Positions 1 to 5,303 of a DNA stretch of 5,303 nucleotides are shown piece after piece. The stretch spans positions 1-5,303 of IMG/VR virus record IMGVR_UViG_3300022670_000052. One strand, given 5' to 3'. Numbering within the stretch: the first letter of the stretch is position 1; each line of letters opens with the position of its first letter. The notes under the pieces are model-generated. The model was not told the origin of the DNA. It saw nothing but the letters and a program-made list of their open reading frames with translations, and ran no database searches. The position numbers and the translations under genes are program-made. Source of the DNA: a virus.

Positions 1-144
1 ACGCACGCTCATCGACGTGGATCGTCGGGAAGCGTAGGAGGGCCATTATCCAGAGCCCACCATGTTCAGGAAAGAATTTACGACGGAATGAAAACTTTCC
101 GACAACTGAGCTTTTTCCCGAATGGGATCCAAGAGCAGCATCGT
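1..144. repeat. Terminal direct repeat, copy 1 (linearisation or assembly overlap of a circular genome)
   Basis: Read base by base, 1..144 (acgcacgctcatcgacgtgg...aagagcagcatcgt) is identical to 5160..5303. The repeat sits exactly at both window ends and lies inside the capsid coding frame. Confidence 0.95.
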
Positions 145-883
145 CAGTTCCATCAACGTCATAGCCGCTAAGCCAGAAACGGTTGCGGCCAATAAGGGTC
201 GGCCGCTGATCAGCGTCCGTATTGACCGTCGACCCGAACGCGGTGTTGAGAATGTCATTGTATCGTTCACCGAAATAAGTCCGATCGACATCAGTTGAAT
301 ATTGAGCTTGCACACGGTTCAGATCCGCGATGTCAAAGCTGGTAGTAGACGGCACATCCCTGAAAGAAGGGTCGACCCCTTCAGTGACGCCCGTAGACCA
401 CGGCGTAGGCAGATAACCGCATTTACGACCGGCGACACGCTCGGCGGAAGTAGTAAGGACCTCATCACCAACAAGTTCTTCGTTGTCAGTGGGCGACCGG
501 AAGTACCGGTTCCAGATGTCATTGTAACCAGCCGAGACCCAGCTCGGGAACTGTTCATTGTCAAGATAATGAGTTCCCATGTAGTCAAGCTCCTGCAGGG
601 AGCTTTGTGAAGGGAAGGTAACCGTATTACGGAGACCGTCCTTGATGAAATCAATCCAGTCCTCGCCATAAGTATGACGATGCGGGACATAGAACGCAAA
701 GAGATCGACATTACAGTCGACCACTAGCGAACGCCGTAACGGCGAAAGGCGGAAAACCCCTTCGAGGTTAAGCGACATACTGTCGCCCGCCATAACAGGA
801 ATTAACGACAAGGTTTGAAGCTTGCCGATATCACCTGCAGAGAAGGAGAAGTGAGAAAGATCACAGCGATACCGCTTGGCCAT
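1..883 (-). CDS. F: Major capsid protein F, N-terminal 294 codons; the CDS continues across the circular junction into 5159..4780
   Basis: I translated this by hand. The ATG is at 883..881, preceded by GGAGG (897..893), and there is no stop down to base 2. The track omits it because it runs off the window edge. The translation begins MAKRYRCDLSHFSFSAGDIGKLQTLSLIPVMAGDSMSLNLEGVFRLSPLRRSLVVDCNVDLFAFYVPHRHTYGEDWIDFIKDG. Further on it contains FWLSGYDVDGTDDAALGSHSGK and FFPEHGGLWIMALLRFP. These align with remembered phiX174 F segments DLSHLGFLAGQIGRL, PVIAGDS, LRLSPLRRGL, FYVPHRHVYGEQWIKFMKDG, LWASGYDVDGTDQTSLGQFSGR and FFVPEHGTMFTLALVRFP. Confidence 0.95.
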   Translation of the reverse strand, partial: MAKRYRCDLSHFSFSAGDIGKLQTLSLIPVMAGDSMSLNLEGVFRLSPLRRSLVVDCNVDLFAFYVPHRHTYGEDWIDFIKDGLRNTVTFPSQSSLQELDYMGTHYLDNEQFPSWVSAGYNDIWNRYFRSPTDNEELVGDEVLTTSAERVAGRKCGYLPTPWSTGVTEGVDPSFRDVPSTTSFDIADLNRVQAQYSTDVDRTYFGERYNDILNTAFGSTVNTDADQRPTLIGRNRFWLSGYDVDGTDDAALGSHSGKSSVVGKFSFRRKFFPEHGGLWIMALLRFPTIHVDERA

Positions 884-1026
884 TAGAACTTTCCTCCGCC
901 CTGATAGTACTTTTTGGGCGATTTGCCGACAGAACGAACAGATTTTCTCGAAGTCGTGCCGCCCTTACGGCGGCCTTTCGAATTCCGACGAGACTTCTTG
1001 GAGTAGCTTCTTCCACGACTAGGCAT
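883..1026 (-). CDS. J: Small, highly basic DNA-binding/packaging protein J (47 aa)
   Basis: Hand translation gives MPSRGRSYSKKSRRNSKGRRKGGTTSRKSVRSVGKSPKKYYQGGGKF, with 17 of 47 residues K or R. The C-terminal YYQGGGKF resembles phiX174 J ...LWYVGGQQF. GGAGG (1040..1036) lies 9 nt upstream of the ATG at 1026..1024. The start overlaps the D stop (ATGCCTAG) and the stop TAA (885..883) overlaps the F ATG (TAATG). Its position between D and F matches phiX174. It is below the length cutoff of the ORF track. Confidence 0.88.
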   Translation of the reverse strand: MPSRGRSYSKKSRRNSKGRRKGGTTSRKSVRSVGKSPKKYYQGGGKF

Positions 1027-1525
1027 CAGATTTAGCCTCCAGAGGTTGCGCATCACCGATCACGTCCCGAAGGGCACGACCGGTGCGCTTGCGCCATTGC
1101 GCCTGACCAGCAGGAGCAAGGCCATAGAGCATGCAACATAGCCCGAAGAGCTTCTGGGCAGTCACAGACTCAAGAGAACCGCCAAACGATAGGTTTTCAG
1201 CGGTAGGACCAGTTTCAAGCCACCGGCATGCTACAGCAATGTTACCGGGAGCACAGAAAGTAGTAATTATCCCGGCACGATATTCAGCAGGGACTTCAAT
1301 CCGGGGCAGACCAAGGACGTCAAGTACGCCGTGGGTAAGAGTGTTAAGCACAGCGCTAACTCTCGTACGATCAGAGCCAATCCAAGGTATGCTATCACAG
1401 CACAGATGAAAGTCATCGTCAGAAATACCAAGGCTCTCAAAGGCATCATTAACGCTTCCATTTTTAATCAGCTCCATACAGTTTTTTGCGACTTGAAAGG
1501 ATACTTCAGTACGCTCAGAACTCAT
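1019..1525 (-). CDS. D: External scaffolding protein D (168 aa)
   Basis: The segment DDDFHLCCDSIPWIGSDRTRVSAVLNTLTHGVLDVLGLPRIEVPAEYRAGIITTFCAPGNIAVACRWLETGPTAENL aligns with remembered phiX174 D segment EDDFDFLTSNKVWIATDRSRARRCVEACVYGTLDFVGYPRFPAPVEFIAAVIAYYVHPVNIQTACLIMEGAEFTENI. An AAAGG Shine-Dalgarno-like motif lies 8 nt upstream of the ATG. The start overlaps the preceding stop as ATGA, as at the phiX C/D junction. Confidence 0.93.
   Translation of the reverse strand: MSSERTEVSFQVAKNCMELIKNGSVNDAFESLGISDDDFHLCCDSIPWIGSDRTRVSAVLNTLTHGVLDVLGLPRIEVPAEYRAGIITTFCAPGNIAVACRWLETGPTAENLSFGGSLESVTAQKLFGLCCMLYGLAPAGQAQWRKRTGRALRDVIGDAQPLEAKSDA
1267..1461 (-). CDS. Candidate single-gene lysis protein (E-like by architecture, no sequence similarity); 64-aa membrane-type ORF nested in the +1 frame of D
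   Basis: It has a true ATG at 1461..1459, with GGAG 10 nt upstream. The product is MEALMMPLRALVFLTMTFICAVIAYLGLALIVRELALCLTLLPTAYLTSLVCPGLKSLLNIVPG. It contains an uninterrupted hydrophobic stretch of about 23 aa (ALVFLTMTFICAVIAYLGLALIV) and a second hydrophobic segment. It lies wholly inside D on the same strand, in the same relative frame (+1) as phiX174 E within D. Confidence 0.45.
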   Translation of the reverse strand: MEALMMPLRALVFLTMTFICAVIAYLGLALIVRELALCLTLLPTAYLTSLVCPGLKSLLNIVPG

Positions 1526-1770
1526 TTATTTAACCTTTCCAGAAGGCGAACGTTGAACGCGCCAACATCCTCAAGCGAACGCCGGAGGATTTGTTTATGT
1601 ATACCCGTGTGCATTGAAGCAACGTACATTCCATGGATCGCAGTAAGAAGAAGATCCATTTCCTTGACCATCCAAAGATCATCATCGGGCCGGAGCGTGA
1701 CAAGTTCCGCCGGCTTGCGCGAAGCGTTTCTCATCCCGTCCAAAGACTGTTTCAAACTGCCGGATAACAT
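1522..1770 (-). CDS. C-position small protein (82 aa); probable DNA-maturation protein C analogue (K-versus-C assignment is ambiguous)
   Basis: It fills the slot between A/B and D. Its stop overlaps the D start (ATGA), as the phiX C stop does. Its ATG overlaps the B stop (TGATG). Codons in this frame are mostly purine-initial, which looks coding. Its size is 82 aa, against 86 aa for phiX C. I see only weak similarity (DDDLW versus DEEKW). Confidence 0.6.
   Translation of the reverse strand: MLSGSLKQSLDGMRNASRKPAELVTLRPDDDLWMVKEMDLLLTAIHGMYVASMHTGIHKQILRRSLEDVGAFNVRLLERLNK
1530..1685 (-). CDS. Hypothetical 51-aa overlapping ORF whose ATG is coupled by ATGA to the A stop
   Basis: Hand translation gives MMIFGWSRKWIFFLLRSMECTLLQCTRVYINKSSGVRLRMLARSTFAFWKG. 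The ATG at 1685..1683 overlaps the A stop TGA at 1684..1682, which is the phiX174 A-stop/C-start arrangement and the same frame as B. It lies entirely inside the 82-aa ORF in another frame. The W/F/C/R-rich composition looks like an off-frame product, so this is a weak call. Confidence 0.25.
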   Translation of the reverse strand: MMIFGWSRKWIFFLLRSMECTLLQCTRVYINKSSGVRLRMLARSTFAFWKG

Positions 1771-3265
1771 CAGAAGCGGCCGTTTTGTTCAAACTCGGCG
1801 TCTCGGTATTCGTAGAATTCGGCGAGTTGGAGTTGGTCGTCGTCCGCATCAAAGACCGCAACCGCGCGACGATAGGCGGCCGTGGAGCCACGGCCAGGAG
1901 CAATTTCCGTGCTGTCGACTTGACCCAGCCATTCGGCTCGATGTCGTCCATCTCGGACTTCTTCCGTTTCAGGAGGATCTTGAGCATTATCAACCGGCAC
2001 ATCGTCTCCGGTATCTTCATCTCCCGTGGGTGGAGCAACTGCCGGATTTTCCCGTGGTATTTCAGGACTTCCAGTAAAGATTCCGTCTCGCACATCTCGC
2101 TCGCGCGCCAGATCCGCTGCTGACCGAACCCTCTCGACATTCTCGTCCGCCATTGTTCATTCCCCTTGTCGGATGCATAGGATTTCGTAATGTATTTAGC
2201 CAAGTAGAACGCCAGAGCCGCCGGAGGCTTCGCCGTGATCGGCAACTTATTCTTAACCGGCCAGCGCCAACCAAGGCGCCCGAAGGGGTCTTCTCCAGAG
2301 AACCTAGCGGCAGTGGGCATCGACCAGCCATAGGGCCAGAACTCTCTTAAAGGATCAATAATCCGTTTCTCAGGTACTGCAGAGCCACGATTAGGGTCCC
2401 GCTTCCAACTAGGCGGGATTTCCTTCATCAAATGAACCACATGGATATGGAGACGGCCAGCACGACTGCCCCGCTCGACCACACCAAAGTATGTATGATA
2501 GGGTGATTCCACTCGAAGTTTTGCAGCTTTCGGTATACTACCATGAACCAGACTACCAACGATCCGATCAATATCTCGGATGTAGAACGCCCATAAACGA
2601 GATCCGGTTTCAAAAACCTTTGTATAGTCTTCGTTACGGACGGTGAGAGTGTTGAAAACACAGTACCATCCTTGAGACACACGAAGTTCAATCTCTTCTT
2701 TAAGACGCCAGGACATTTCAGAGACACGGGCCTGTAATCCTTTCTTCTTTACCTTAGCCATGGCATCGAGGATCCATTCCTCAGTGCCACTAGAAGGTTT
2801 TATATTAACTACATCGCCGAATATTTCTTCGGCCATTTGTACGGGGGAACCCATATTTTTCAGCTCTCTACGGATGACAGACAGTAATTCATCTTCATCG
2901 CTGTACCACTCTCCCGTGGTGGGGTCAACCAAACCATCCAATTGCTTGGCGTCGGAGACGTGCTCCGACAAGTGAGTGAGCTTCGCTCCCTCTGCGGGAA
3001 GTGTTTTCAAGCTCTCGTGGGGTTGGGTTGTTAAGGAGGTGTTATCAAGTAGACACCTGAGATGCCCAAGATGGGACAGTATAGGGGCCGCTGCGAGGGC
3101 GGAGAGGCCCCAGTCAGTCCGAAGTTGCCCTTCGGTGGACCTACCCTCAAGCCAGGACAGTTGCTTCTGTATGAGCCGCATACGGCTGTTAATCGCATTG
3201 CTGACACGAAAGAGTGGGTCGGCGGCAGATAGCTCGCCGACCGTAAGTGATTCTTGAAGGTTCAA
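1682..3265 (-). CDS. A: Rolling-circle replication initiator protein A (HUH endonuclease). The maximal ORF is 527 aa; the start is uncertain between TTG at 3265 and the first ATG at 3181
   Basis: The HUH motif GRLHIHVVHLM (DNA 2432..2449) matches phiX GRLHFHAVHFM. The twin catalytic tyrosines AFYLAKYITK (2183..2206) match GFYVAKYVNK. Other matches are GWYCVFNTLTV versus GWFIVFDTLTL, WPYGWSMP versus WPYGYSMP, GWRWPV versus GWLWPV, and RTRMSRGFG versus RIRMSRNFG. The TTG at 3265 has GAGGA 8 nt upstream and overlaps the H stop. The ATG at 3181 has no Shine-Dalgarno motif. I could not call an internal A*-type start. Confidence 0.93.
   Translation of the reverse strand: MNLQESLTVGELSAADPLFRVSNAINSRMRLIQKQLSWLEGRSTEGQLRTDWGLSALAAAPILSHLGHLRCLLDNTSLTTQPHESLKTLPAEGAKLTHLSEHVSDAKQLDGLVDPTTGEWYSDEDELLSVIRRELKNMGSPVQMAEEIFGDVVNIKPSSGTEEWILDAMAKVKKKGLQARVSEMSWRLKEEIELRVSQGWYCVFNTLTVRNEDYTKVFETGSRLWAFYIRDIDRIVGSLVHGSIPKAAKLRVESPYHTYFGVVERGSRAGRLHIHVVHLMKEIPPSWKRDPNRGSAVPEKRIIDPLREFWPYGWSMPTAARFSGEDPFGRLGWRWPVKNKLPITAKPPAALAFYLAKYITKSYASDKGNEQWRTRMSRGFGQQRIWRASEMCETESLLEVLKYHGKIRQLLHPREMKIPETMCRLIMLKILLKRKKSEMDDIEPNGWVKSTARKLLLAVAPRPPIVARLRSLMRTTTNSNSPNSTNTETPSLNKTAASDVIRQFETVFGRDEKRFAQAGGTCHAPAR
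1770..2153 (-). CDS. B: Internal scaffolding protein B (127 aa), fully nested in gene A in the +2 frame
   Basis: The C-terminus QLQLAEFYEYRDAEFEQNGRF matches remembered phiX174 B C-terminus RIQPAEFYRFHDAEVNTFGYF. It has an ATG at 2153..2151, with AAGGGG 8 nt upstream. The body is acidic. It ends 88 nt before the A stop; by my memory of phiX coordinates the equivalent distance there is about 85 nt. Confidence 0.88.
   Translation of the reverse strand: MADENVERVRSAADLARERDVRDGIFTGSPEIPRENPAVAPPTGDEDTGDDVPVDNAQDPPETEEVRDGRHRAEWLGQVDSTEIAPGRGSTAAYRRAVAVFDADDDQLQLAEFYEYRDAEFEQNGRF
2917..2944 (-). other. Candidate viral-strand replication origin, option 2
   Basis: The minus strand reads CAATTGGATGGTTTGGTTGACCCCACCA, matching CAACTTGATA at 7 of 10 positions. 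It encodes QLDGLVDPTTGEW at A residues 108-120 (TTG numbering). That is nearly the same residue index as phiX QLDINNTIDHRPEGDEKW, and the spacing to the GW(F/Y) motif is similar. Confidence 0.25.
3017..3052 (-). other. Candidate viral-strand replication origin (nick site), option 1
   Basis: The minus strand reads CTACTTGATAACACCTCCTTAACAACCCAACCCCAC. The first 10 nt match the phiX174 minimal cleavage decamer CAACTTGATA at 9 of 10 positions. ACTTGATAACAC equals phiX ACTTGAT[ATTAAT]AACAC with a 6-nt gap. It lies in the N-terminal third of A, as the phiX origin does. The predicted nick is between minus-strand positions 3046 and 3045 (G/A). Confidence 0.4.
3217..3242 (-). other. GC-rich stem-loop just downstream of the H stop (8-bp stem GGTCGGCG/CGCCGACC, 10-nt loop)
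   Basis: Read directly: 3235..3242 pairs with 3217..3224. On the minus strand it is followed by CACTCTTTCG, which is only a weak T-tract. It lies between the H stop and the first ATG of A, which is the only stretch of the genome that could be non-coding. Confidence 0.35.
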
Positions 3266-4143
3266 CGAGCCATTCCTCGCACGGACGATTGAGAGCCTTT
3301 GAAGGCTTTGAGGGCACCCTTGGCTAAGCCAGCGATGCCCATAGCCTGGAAGACACCCGCGAGCTCGCCCTTAGCAAGGCCGAGACCACGGATCCAGGAC
3401 ATGTTTTCACGTACCCATTTAGTCAGATCAGTATCAGCACCAGAGATTCGAAACGCTCGAGCGCGGATCGCCGCGGCCGCGGCGTCGGTGAGGGAGCTGA
3501 ACTCCTTCCCGATATGAGCTGTAGCCAGCTCTTTTTTGATCCACATTTCTTGATGTTTAGTAGCAGCATTTTCCCAAGCAGCTTCAGCTTGTTTTTCTTG
3601 AGCAGCGACGCCACGGAACCCGACACCAGGGCCGGGACCGGCGCCGCCAGCAGTCTCGCCAGTAGCGATCCAGTTACCGGCCGGCACCACATTGGCCGAG
3701 CCGATCTTATCAGCATGAGCAACGGCCGCAGCGCGGCCTTGAATTTGAGCATTCGATTGTTGAACCGCGACCTGATTGGCCGCGATAGATTTTTGAGTAG
3801 TTTGTTGAGACGTCGCCACAGACGACTGAGTGCGCGCCATGCGCTTAGACGAATTATCCTGAACCTGGGCAGTCATAGCTTGCCCGATAGGATTTCCAGC
3901 ACCTAGACGTTCCCAAGGGTTTGTCCCAGGGAACGCCTCATTATAATACTCTCGGGCTTGAACGCCCTGCGCACCTCCAGTTTTTGGAACGGTGAGACCC
4001 TGAGCGGATGAACCCGCCAGAGCAGTACCGACGGCGCCACCAAAGGCGCCCCCGGCAGCCCCACCGAAGTAGGTCCCGACCGCAGTACCAGCGGCCGGGA
4101 GGATAGACTTGAAGGATTTGAAGACCTTTGAGAAGAAGCCCAT
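3262..4143 (-). CDS. H: DNA pilot (minor spike, DNA-ejection tube) protein H, 293 aa
   Basis: The N-terminus is Gly-rich and hydrophobic (GTAVGTYFGGAAGGAFGGAVGTALAG), like phiX MFGAIAGGIASALAGGAMSKLFGGG. REYYNEAFPGTNPWERLGAG matches phiX RDYLAAAFPELNAWERAGAD. The central region is Q/A-rich and looks helical. The ATG overlaps the G stop (TAATG). Its position after G matches phiX174. Confidence 0.92.
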   Translation of the reverse strand: MGFFSKVFKSFKSILPAAGTAVGTYFGGAAGGAFGGAVGTALAGSSAQGLTVPKTGGAQGVQAREYYNEAFPGTNPWERLGAGNPIGQAMTAQVQDNSSKRMARTQSSVATSQQTTQKSIAANQVAVQQSNAQIQGRAAAVAHADKIGSANVVPAGNWIATGETAGGAGPGPGVGFRGVAAQEKQAEAAWENAATKHQEMWIKKELATAHIGKEFSSLTDAAAAAIRARAFRISGADTDLTKWVRENMSWIRGLGLAKGELAGVFQAMGIAGLAKGALKAFKGSQSSVRGMAR

Positions 4144-4778
4144 TAGCGATTAGGATCAAAGGGCGAGAGATCCTCCTCGTAGCGTTGGATCCCGACAGAC
4201 TGAAACCAGTCGTCGAACGTAGCCACATCAGCACCGCTATTAGCGACCACGAAGCCGAAGATTAGATCAGTTTGCCGCTCCTCATCGAGACGGCCAAGCC
4301 AGTTACCAGTAAGCGTCGTCATATTGACGCCAGCAGCAAGGGGACCGCGACCAGACGCGGAACCACCAGAGTTTGAAGTATCGGTATGAGGGATCAAGGT
4401 CCAAGAGGCCAAGATACCCTCGCTTTCACCACTATTTTCACAGTGACCGAGAAGAGCGAAGACATCCACATCGTCATCCGACGAGAAGATACGCATGGCG
4501 CCAGACACGCCGAACAGATATTGCCGGTTCTCAATCAGAGACCGGGAATTGATTTTTACACCAAGAAGGATAGCCTCCGTTCCATTGAGAGTAAAGGAGC
4601 CGACCTGACGTGACGAGTGAGCATTCACGCCCTGAGGCGCGATAGCATCACCGACCACTAGATAACGGATAAACCCGAGAGCGCCAGCAGCGGCCTCGAT
4701 ATCCGTACCATTTATTAACAGCTCTTGATTCTCCATATTGGAGATCTGAGCCGGACCGATCCGATTGATACGGAACAT
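4143..4778 (-). CDS. G: Major spike protein G (211 aa), assigned mainly by position
   Basis: It lies between F and H as in phiX174. GGGAG (4789..4785) is 6 nt upstream of the ATG at 4778, which sits 1 nt after the F stop. It starts MF.. like phiX G. The only weak motif resemblance is near the C-terminus (LIFGFVVANS versus VYVGFMVWSN). It is longer than the roughly 175-aa phiX G. Confidence 0.7.
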   Translation of the reverse strand: MFRINRIGPAQISNMENQELLINGTDIEAAAGALGFIRYLVVGDAIAPQGVNAHSSRQVGSFTLNGTEAILLGVKINSRSLIENRQYLFGVSGAMRIFSSDDDVDVFALLGHCENSGESEGILASWTLIPHTDTSNSGGSASGRGPLAAGVNMTTLTGNWLGRLDEERQTDLIFGFVVANSGADVATFDDWFQSVGIQRYEEDLSPFDPNR

Positions 4779-4779
4779 A

Positions 4780-5303
4780 TTAGACTCCCGCGTACAGAGA
4801 AGAACGAGAAGGAGGAACGGTGCGTTGGCAGCTAATATCTAGCCTGCCAGCCACGTTCCAGTGACGAAGTTGATTTGTCTGGAAGACGTCATCGTACTCC
4901 GTGTCGCCAACATAGTTGGCTTTGTCTTGTGTATCGATTGGAGTATCGATGAAAGAATAACCGTCCAGAACTTTGTATAGACGGTGAACGATATTCGGAT
5001 GATATCGGTAGTGTTGTCCGAACGGGATAGCGCCGAAGCCGCTACCAGAACCGTTCGAAAAGAAGTCTGCAGGAACCATGTCCACAGGAGGCTCAGCAGA
5101 TACCAGAGCAGGATCACCCGCTTGCTCCAGGTAGGAGGCATCAACTTGTTGAAGGAGGAACGCACGCTCATCGACGTGGATCGTCGGGAAGCGTAGGAGG
5201 GCCATTATCCAGAGCCCACCATGTTCAGGAAAGAATTTACGACGGAATGAAAACTTTCCGACAACTGAGCTTTTTCCCGAATGGGATCCAAGAGCAGCAT
5301 CGT
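4780..5303 (-). CDS. F: Major capsid protein F, C-terminal part; 5160..5303 duplicates 1..144, and the stop TAA is at 4782..4780
   Basis: The track ORF 4780..5205 is in frame with the 883..2 reading frame (44..46 equals 5203..5205). The joined product is 420 aa, against about 426 aa for phiX174 F. The C-terminal segments AGDPALV, QHYRYHPNIVHRLYKVLDGYSFI and QLRHWN resemble phiX AGDPVLY, QWYRYAPSYVSPAYHLLEGFPFI and QLLQWN. Confidence 0.93.
   Translation of the reverse strand, partial: DAALGSHSGKSSVVGKFSFRRKFFPEHGGLWIMALLRFPTIHVDERAFLLQQVDASYLEQAGDPALVSAEPPVDMVPADFFSNGSGSGFGAIPFGQHYRYHPNIVHRLYKVLDGYSFIDTPIDTQDKANYVGDTEYDDVFQTNQLRHWNVAGRLDISCQRTVPPSRSSLYAGV
5160..5303. repeat. Terminal direct repeat, copy 2
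   Basis: Identical to 1..144. The offset between the two copies is 5159 nt. Confidence 0.95.

Follow-up and report, generated by a model that had tools for sequence, protein, structure and literature searches.

A candidate overprinted membrane-protein gene in the +1 frame of scaffolding gene D of a microvirus

The window, by which we mean the whole 5,303-nucleotide stretch analysed here (IMG/VR virus record IMGVR_UViG_3300022670_000052), begins with 144 bases that are an exact copy of positions 5160-5303, and this 144-nt terminal repeat identifies it as a complete circular microvirus genome of 5159 nt, assembled with overlap. Its genes follow the phiX174-type order A/B-C-D-J-F-G-H and all lie on the minus strand:

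3265..1682, minus strand: A, 527 aa, with weak Phage_GPA matches
2153..1770, minus strand: B-like acidic ORF, 127 aa, inside A in the +2 frame, with a weak internal scaffolding PHROG match
1770..1522, minus strand: C-like ORF
1525..1019, minus strand: D, external scaffolding protein, 168 aa (PF02925, E=8.7e-15; phrog_1386, E=6.7e-35)
ending at 883, minus strand: J, basic
883 to 1, then 5159 to 4780, minus strand: F, 420 aa, spanning the circle junction
4778..4143, minus strand: G-like ORF
4143..3262, minus strand: H

A megablast of the whole window against the phage collection gave no DNA-level match; in D protein it comes closest, among annotated phages, to a Ciona-gut microvirus (44% identity) and the Eel River 'pequenoviruses' (33-39%), with phiX174 at 31% and Vibrio phages at 28%. 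No protein of the genome matches a lysis family in Pfam or PHROG, nor is there a muralytic enzyme gene for holin-endolysin lysis, 8/8 genes being accounted for without an enzyme-family match. Inside A, the DNA at about 3014-3076 (minus strand, codons 64-84) is kept in 14/14 genomes as 'C[AT]ACTTGATAA..CCTCC...CAC' and resembles the phiX174 replication-origin core CAACTTGATA. Its codons show a same-codon identity of 0.53-0.61 where 0.34 would be expected, and it is probably the origin cut by protein A. On the plus strand, a 248-aa GTG ORF at 1331-2077 runs antisense to D, C and the end of A; because microviruses transcribe only one strand, it is probably a codon-usage artefact.

Within D, a further reading frame is open, with these features:

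1461..1267, minus strand: nested ATG ORF, 64 aa, MEALMMPLRALVFLTMTFICAVIAYLGLALIVRELALCLTLLPTAYLTSLVCPGLKSLLNIVPG, in the +1 frame of D, codons 22-85
1351..1461, minus strand: retained core, the start codon and first hydrophobic helix, residues 1-37, D codons 22-58
1366..1434, minus strand: predicted transmembrane helix, residues 10-32, ALVFLTMTFICAVIAYLGLALIV, mean Kyte-Doolittle hydropathy 2.57
1306..1359, minus strand: second, weaker hydrophobic segment, residues 35-52, mean hydropathy 1.87
1475..1472, minus strand: GGAG, Shine-Dalgarno-like, with a 10-nt spacer to the ATG, formed by D codons Met17-Glu18

A sequence-only reading of the window had described a 64-aa ATG ORF with an upstream GGAG, and both ORF and motif, checked on the minus strand, are exactly where it had placed them; it had also set the span at about D codons 22-86, apart from the part of D that holds E, and the ORF indeed covers codons 22-85 with its stop, TAA, at codon 86. 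Its frame relative to D is +1, as (1525-1461) mod 3 = 1, and no alternative start lies between the in-frame upstream TGA and the ATG. The predicted helix is flanked by R9 and by R33-E34, and the product as a whole has a GRAVY of 1.53, a best 19-residue hydropathy of 2.45 and a net charge of +1. Neither the nested ORF nor the similar ORFs of relatives match any Pfam or PHROG family. Of the genomes compared, the window, L003 and L005 alone have the GGAG motif ahead of the ORF; in the window genome, J, F and G are preceded by GGAGG or GGAG at spacers of 6-9 nt.

Such an ORF could be a non-functional by-product of codon bias, with no useful translation and with lysis achieved otherwise, an explanation that we regard as the main rival of a lysis gene and as nearly as likely, and several properties of the frame speak for it. 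Third codon positions in the clade are 41% T, and because these T-rich positions become second positions in +1, that frame is naturally open and hydrophobic; the long alternative-frame ATG ORFs of the genome, B aside, all lie in +1 frames (130, 110, 109, 89 and 81 aa), and relatives have many comparable hydrophobic +1 ORFs in F, G, H and A. With the D protein held fixed and its synonymous codons redrawn or shuffled, an ATG arose at +1 codons 19-30 in 81-97% of synonymous redraws for the window D (45-100% across 18 genomes), being forced by the conserved Asn/Asp-Gly of D (AAT/GAT GGx) and also by Asn-Asp, and a helix-bearing ORF of at least 30 aa arose in 35-42% of redraws of the window. An ORF at least as long as the nested one (64 aa) appeared in 2.8-5.6% of trials within D and, genome-wide, an ATG ORF of at least 60 aa with a 19-residue Kyte-Doolittle value of at least 2.4 in 5.8-9.6% of trials. 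With P thus about 0.03-0.06 within D and 0.06-0.10 genome-wide, the nested ORF is by itself only borderline unusual, and in the window its hydrophobicity is no higher than that of shuffles (P=0.42).

The comparison drew on 17 other D genes from the clade; 13 come from complete circular genomes that share the window's gene order. Their products are 45-78% identical to the window's D over a core that aligns without gaps, which lets the +1 frames be matched one codon at a time. The closest relative found has 74% D identity over the full length (78% over the gap-free core), and D-based scans of metagenome contigs and genome contigs returned nothing. Taking +1 ORFs that start at D codons 22-28, the 18 genomes divide as follows:

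Window's own D-based group (window, L006, L005, L003): Met22 and hydrophobic helix in 4/4; 64, 38, 41 and 46 aa
Second D-based group (L001, L016, L017, L018): +1 ORF with Met and hydrophobic helix in 4/4; 64, 57, 99 and 59 aa
Others with the ORF (L015, L011, L012): 41, 30 and 76 aa
Weak (L009): 38 aa, weakly hydrophobic
Not hydrophobic (L007, L008): 34 aa, basic
Early stops (L010, L013, L014, L002): helix-bearing ORF absent

The Met and first helix are retained in 11/18 genomes, in ORFs that range from 30 to 99 aa overall and from 38 to 46 aa in the closest relatives. Conservation of the nested ORF, which the sequence-only reading had raised as a test, does not extend to its full 64 aa: in the four nearest relatives the +1 frame stops after 38, 46, 41 and 41 codons. 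Because these stops fall before or within the second hydrophobic segment, that segment is not a conserved feature, and the proposed architecture of a helix of about 23 residues plus a second hydrophobic segment is present in the window in both parts and loses its second part among relatives. L014 and L002 have no strongly hydrophobic alternative ORF anywhere, and in 14/14 D genes from farther afield (30-41% identity) numerous stops interrupt the +1 frame. Where the frame is open, it is not simply inherited; we rejected shared ancestry as the reason because synonymous sites are saturated (median same-codon identity in F 0.409 against 0.40 expected). This saturation, with Met and helix intact throughout both four-member groups, speaks for a real gene. 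Same-codon identity over D 21-45 is itself only slightly raised (0.47 against 0.41 expected; 0.70 against 0.30 in the A/B overlap). Other features count against a function and fit a codon-bias by-product: 6-7/17 relatives and all 14 outgroups lack an intact hydrophobic frame, so that the distribution is patchy, the length is variable, the ribosome-binding motif is unconserved, and same-codon identity is barely raised.

Against a by-product stand statistical signs of selection on the +1 frame. In the stop test, the region had been fixed beforehand by the sequence-only reading, and the window was left out, so that the counts come from the 17 relatives:

+1 codons 22-85 of D: 32 stops against 46.6-47.1 expected, P=0.0005
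+1 codons 22-58 of D: 10 stops against 19 expected, P=0.004-0.0065
+1 codons 59-85 of D: 22 stops against 27-28 expected, P=0.05-0.10
+1 codons 86-150 of D (control): 26 stops against 23-24 expected, not depleted, P 0.73-0.78

The comparison of the nested frame among relatives that the earlier reading had called for thus favours it, with stops depleted over codons 22-85 and the neighbouring control neutral. Codons 22-58 are fully open in 10/17 relatives, where 5.1 would be expected (P=0.0035-0.0115). When the 64-codon +1 stretches of A, D, F, G and H, 483 in all, are ranked by stop depletion, D 21-84 comes first (z=-3.4), and D 24-60 likewise heads a set of 432 (z=-3.5); the peak of depletion, an extreme of the whole data set, coincides with the nested ORF's own boundaries, which counts against a by-product.

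Third-position T (T3) points the same way. Over D 26-55 it exceeds the amino-acid prediction by z=+3.5, the top value of 353 stretches, and raw T3 in the enriched stretch is 50% against 38.5% in the rest of D. A side effect of preferred codons at conserved residues was rejected as the source: the ratio of observed to expected T3 is 1.12-1.23 in D 22-60 and 0.98-1.02 elsewhere in every conservation class, and the most conserved part of D, codons 66-105, is not enriched (z about 0). A local enrichment explained neither by amino-acid content nor by conservation again argues against a by-product. The +1 peptide over codons 30-55 has a pooled hydrophobicity of 1.18 against 0.84 in synonymous shuffles, a value reached by 0/1000. 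Stop depletion, T3 and hydrophobicity are not independent signals, since all three stem from extra third-position T.

Two benchmarks place these signals. Depletion in the nested ORF is partial, unlike the complete depletion of B inside A: the ORF at 2153..1770 is a clear B homologue, and this positive control, scored across 14 genomes, contains 0 stops in the +2 frame where 20-41 are expected per stretch. In phiX174 and ID11, each taken as a single genome, the open E frame has a shuffle P of 0.01-0.026, and T3 reaches 0.51-0.57 in the codons of the E helix, compared with 0.30-0.33 in the remainder of E; with the E benchmark so much alike, the nested-ORF signals match in kind and size those of a true helix-only overprinted lysis gene.

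Gene A contains another hydrophobic +1 ORF that recurs:

2428..2544, minus strand: ATG ORF, 38 aa, in the +1 frame of A, codons 241-279, MVVYRK...AVVLAVSISMWFI, with a hydrophobic C-terminal stretch

An equivalent open hydrophobic stretch occurs in 12/14 genomes, over the catalytic-motif region of A, with 1 stop against 8.1 expected (z=-2.83), and the ORF is a possible second hidden membrane-protein gene. The nested D ORF is therefore not the sole candidate; the earlier statement that the genome encodes no other obvious lysis function is right as far as annotation goes and needs qualifying for this ORF. Its existence bears on another explanation, which we think improbable: that the nested ORF is a real overprinted membrane-protein gene with an accessory role like that of phiX174 K, for example in burst size or superinfection exclusion. 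Lysis would then come from elsewhere, a supposition just as improbable in our view, for instance from the A(+1) ORF at 2544..2428 or from a structural protein with a second role. K is accessory and non-essential in phiX174, an example of how a gene can be small, hydrophobic and overlapping without serving lysis; the patchy distribution of the nested ORF among relatives would fit such a role, as would the recurrence and stop depletion of the A(+1) ORF. Yet the evidence favours no particular alternative function, the sequence of the A(+1) peptide follows largely from the invariant catalytic-motif region of A, and the lysis genes of small phages are themselves patchy and shift position (PMC7693330).

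That +1 ORFs in both A and F recur merely from overlying invariant motifs also lends weight to a by-product in D. The F(+1) ORF 'MTLMEL...' (window 46-162, minus strand, F codons ~241-279) lies over the invariant WLSGYDVDGTDDA motif of F, which accounts for its presence in many relatives; stops are not depleted there, and the ORF is probably a by-product. In H, a 109-aa +1 ORF lies at 3423-3752 (minus strand, H codons 131-240); T3 enrichment at H codons 117-146 equals that of the D region (z=3.5), and in relatives we saw no ORF conserved at that position. Codons 83-121 of A, which have 3 stops in the +2 frame where 12.5 are expected, were considered as a hidden gene; the idea was rejected since the alignment there is gappy, and the synonymous conservation beside it, at A codons 46-105, was put down to the replication origin ('CTACTTGATAAC', like the phiX origin core). 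Relatives whose genomes lack a detectable homologue of the window's C-like protein carry short, strongly hydrophobic ORFs between A and D (L012 3892-4014, L013 2930-3046, L017 4676-4801), which are possible alternative membrane or lysis genes in those phages.

Taking the observed ORF, its frame, its hydrophobic helix and the signs of selection in relatives together, we tentatively read the nested ORF, at a little less than an even chance, as an overprinted gene for a membrane protein, plausible and conserved in part, whose function is probably lysis and which is unrelated to E. From these features we infer its translation, membrane insertion, lytic action and target as follows. The functional core would be the start codon and one transmembrane helix, about the first 37 codons, over D codons 22-58. 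It would be translated at a low level off the abundant D message via the weak internal ribosome-binding site, and the product would insert in the inner membrane and act as the phage's single-gene lysis protein. Most likely the helix would, like phiX174 E at MraY, block a step in the supply of cell-wall precursors that is embedded in the membrane; direct envelope damage would be an alternative mode of action. The gene would have originated independently of E, enabled by third-position T in D, which yields hydrophobic residues and few stops in the +1 frame. The suggestion of an independently evolved overprinted gene accords with the lack of relationship to E and with the different part of D, and is good only if the ORF is real.

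At the position in D where coliphages carry E, the window has no homologue: we rejected one there on account of +1 stops at D codons 86, 98 and 122, and an ATG is missing at the E-equivalent start because the His codon is CAC. Among the relatives, only three have strong helix-bearing +1 ORFs at this position, namely L003 (4115-4402, 95 aa), L013 (3279-3407, 42 aa) and L012 (4134-4364). The 95-aa ORF of L003 reads FGLVLLLLLFLPVILLSLV and then a basic tail, where the window has stops. Its candidacy as a relative of E was rejected: BLASTP gives 28% over 39 residues (E=0.035 in a single comparison), no more than one would see on translating homologous D genes in that frame.

These ORFs allow a wider conjecture, to which we give a rather low probability, that the +1 frame of D is a nursery of helix-only lysis proteins that have arisen at least twice, perhaps three times. 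Its members, on this unlikely but coherent scheme, would be the D 22-58 ORF, the E-position ORFs of L003, L012 and L013, and coliphage E. By analogy with RNA phages, and with the same small likelihood, lysis genes would be gained, moved and lost between fairly close phages.

Single-gene lysis by overprinting on D is already known; what would be new, if the nested ORF is a lysis gene, is the other position and the unrelated sequence. D would then carry a second overprinted lysis gene of independent origin, implying that in DNA microviruses, as in RNA phages, lysis genes arise de novo time and again, and together with the E-position ORFs of relatives the nested ORF would point to repeated de novo lysis-gene birth in one host frame. 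Its product, about 40-64 residues long, would be a new small inhibitor, a membrane peptide whose target may be a cell-wall synthesis step in a non-enteric host. Should the lysis function fail, the locus would be a well-documented case of codon bias making convincing membrane-protein-like ORFs. Stop depletion combined with third-position T enrichment, benchmarked on real E, offers a reusable screen for hidden genes.

Of the known lysis proteins, E of phiX174, G4 and alpha3 (PF04517) is the obvious comparison. Like the nested ORF it is a small ORF in the +1 frame of D, and the claim that the two share a relative frame is confirmed by the phiX174 coordinates, (568-390 = 178) mod 3 = 1. E has an N-terminal transmembrane helix over T-rich third positions, at a T3 close to the 0.55 of the nested ORF, and in each case the internal ribosome-binding site is weak and the genome has no other lysis gene. 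E inhibits MraY and depends on SlyD. The differences begin with position: phiX174 E starts at D codon 60 of 152 and covers codons 60-151, its start corresponding to about window codon 66, and its helix aligns with window D codons ~75-93, across the first of the window's +1 stops at 86 and 98, whereas the nested ORF occupies codons 22-85. E starts at a conserved Tyr/His-Gly of D and takes up the C-terminal two thirds, a start and a placement that the nested ORF does not share. The family profile PF04517, against which phiX174 E scores 1.8e-22, does not match the nested ORF, and BLASTP finds no alignment between the two at E<=100, in keeping with the reported absence of sequence similarity to E. 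The E-type architecture proposed for the nested ORF does not hold: E has a mid-helix proline and a strongly basic cytoplasmic domain (+10), whereas the nested ORF is hydrophobic throughout (+1) with a proline-free helix, and its versions in relatives have no conserved helix proline. Finally, the E frame is open in both Bullavirinae genomes checked, whereas the nested ORF is not kept throughout its own clade. As every testable E-family feature fails except the frame, the nested ORF would be an analogue of E and not a member of its family.

phiX174 K, like the nested ORF, is a small hydrophobic overlapping-frame protein in a Bullavirinae-type genome; it spans the A/C junction instead of lying in D and has no similarity to the nested ORF. 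For D-bearing microviruses outside the coliphages, we found no lysis gene reported in the literature, and the paper on Vibrio phage PG19 lists gpE as absent (PMC9431446). The remaining parallel is with the single-gene lysis proteins (Sgls) of ssRNA phages (MS2 L, LysM and the metagenomic set), which belong to RNA phages and other host genes, whereas the nested ORF is in a DNA phage. Of the RNA-phage candidates tested by Chamakura et al. 2020 (PMC7693330), most of which have a predicted helix, 33/293 proved active in E. coli, a low success rate that favours a by-product here. The Sgls of small phages are patchy, lack mutual similarity and sit at differing positions in related genomes; those of ssRNA phages are embedded in essential genes, mostly in the +1 frame, and are short and helix-bearing (PMC7693330). 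Sgl searches took ORFs of at least 25 codons with a Shine-Dalgarno-like motif and a predicted helix (PMC7693330), and the nested ORF has all three.
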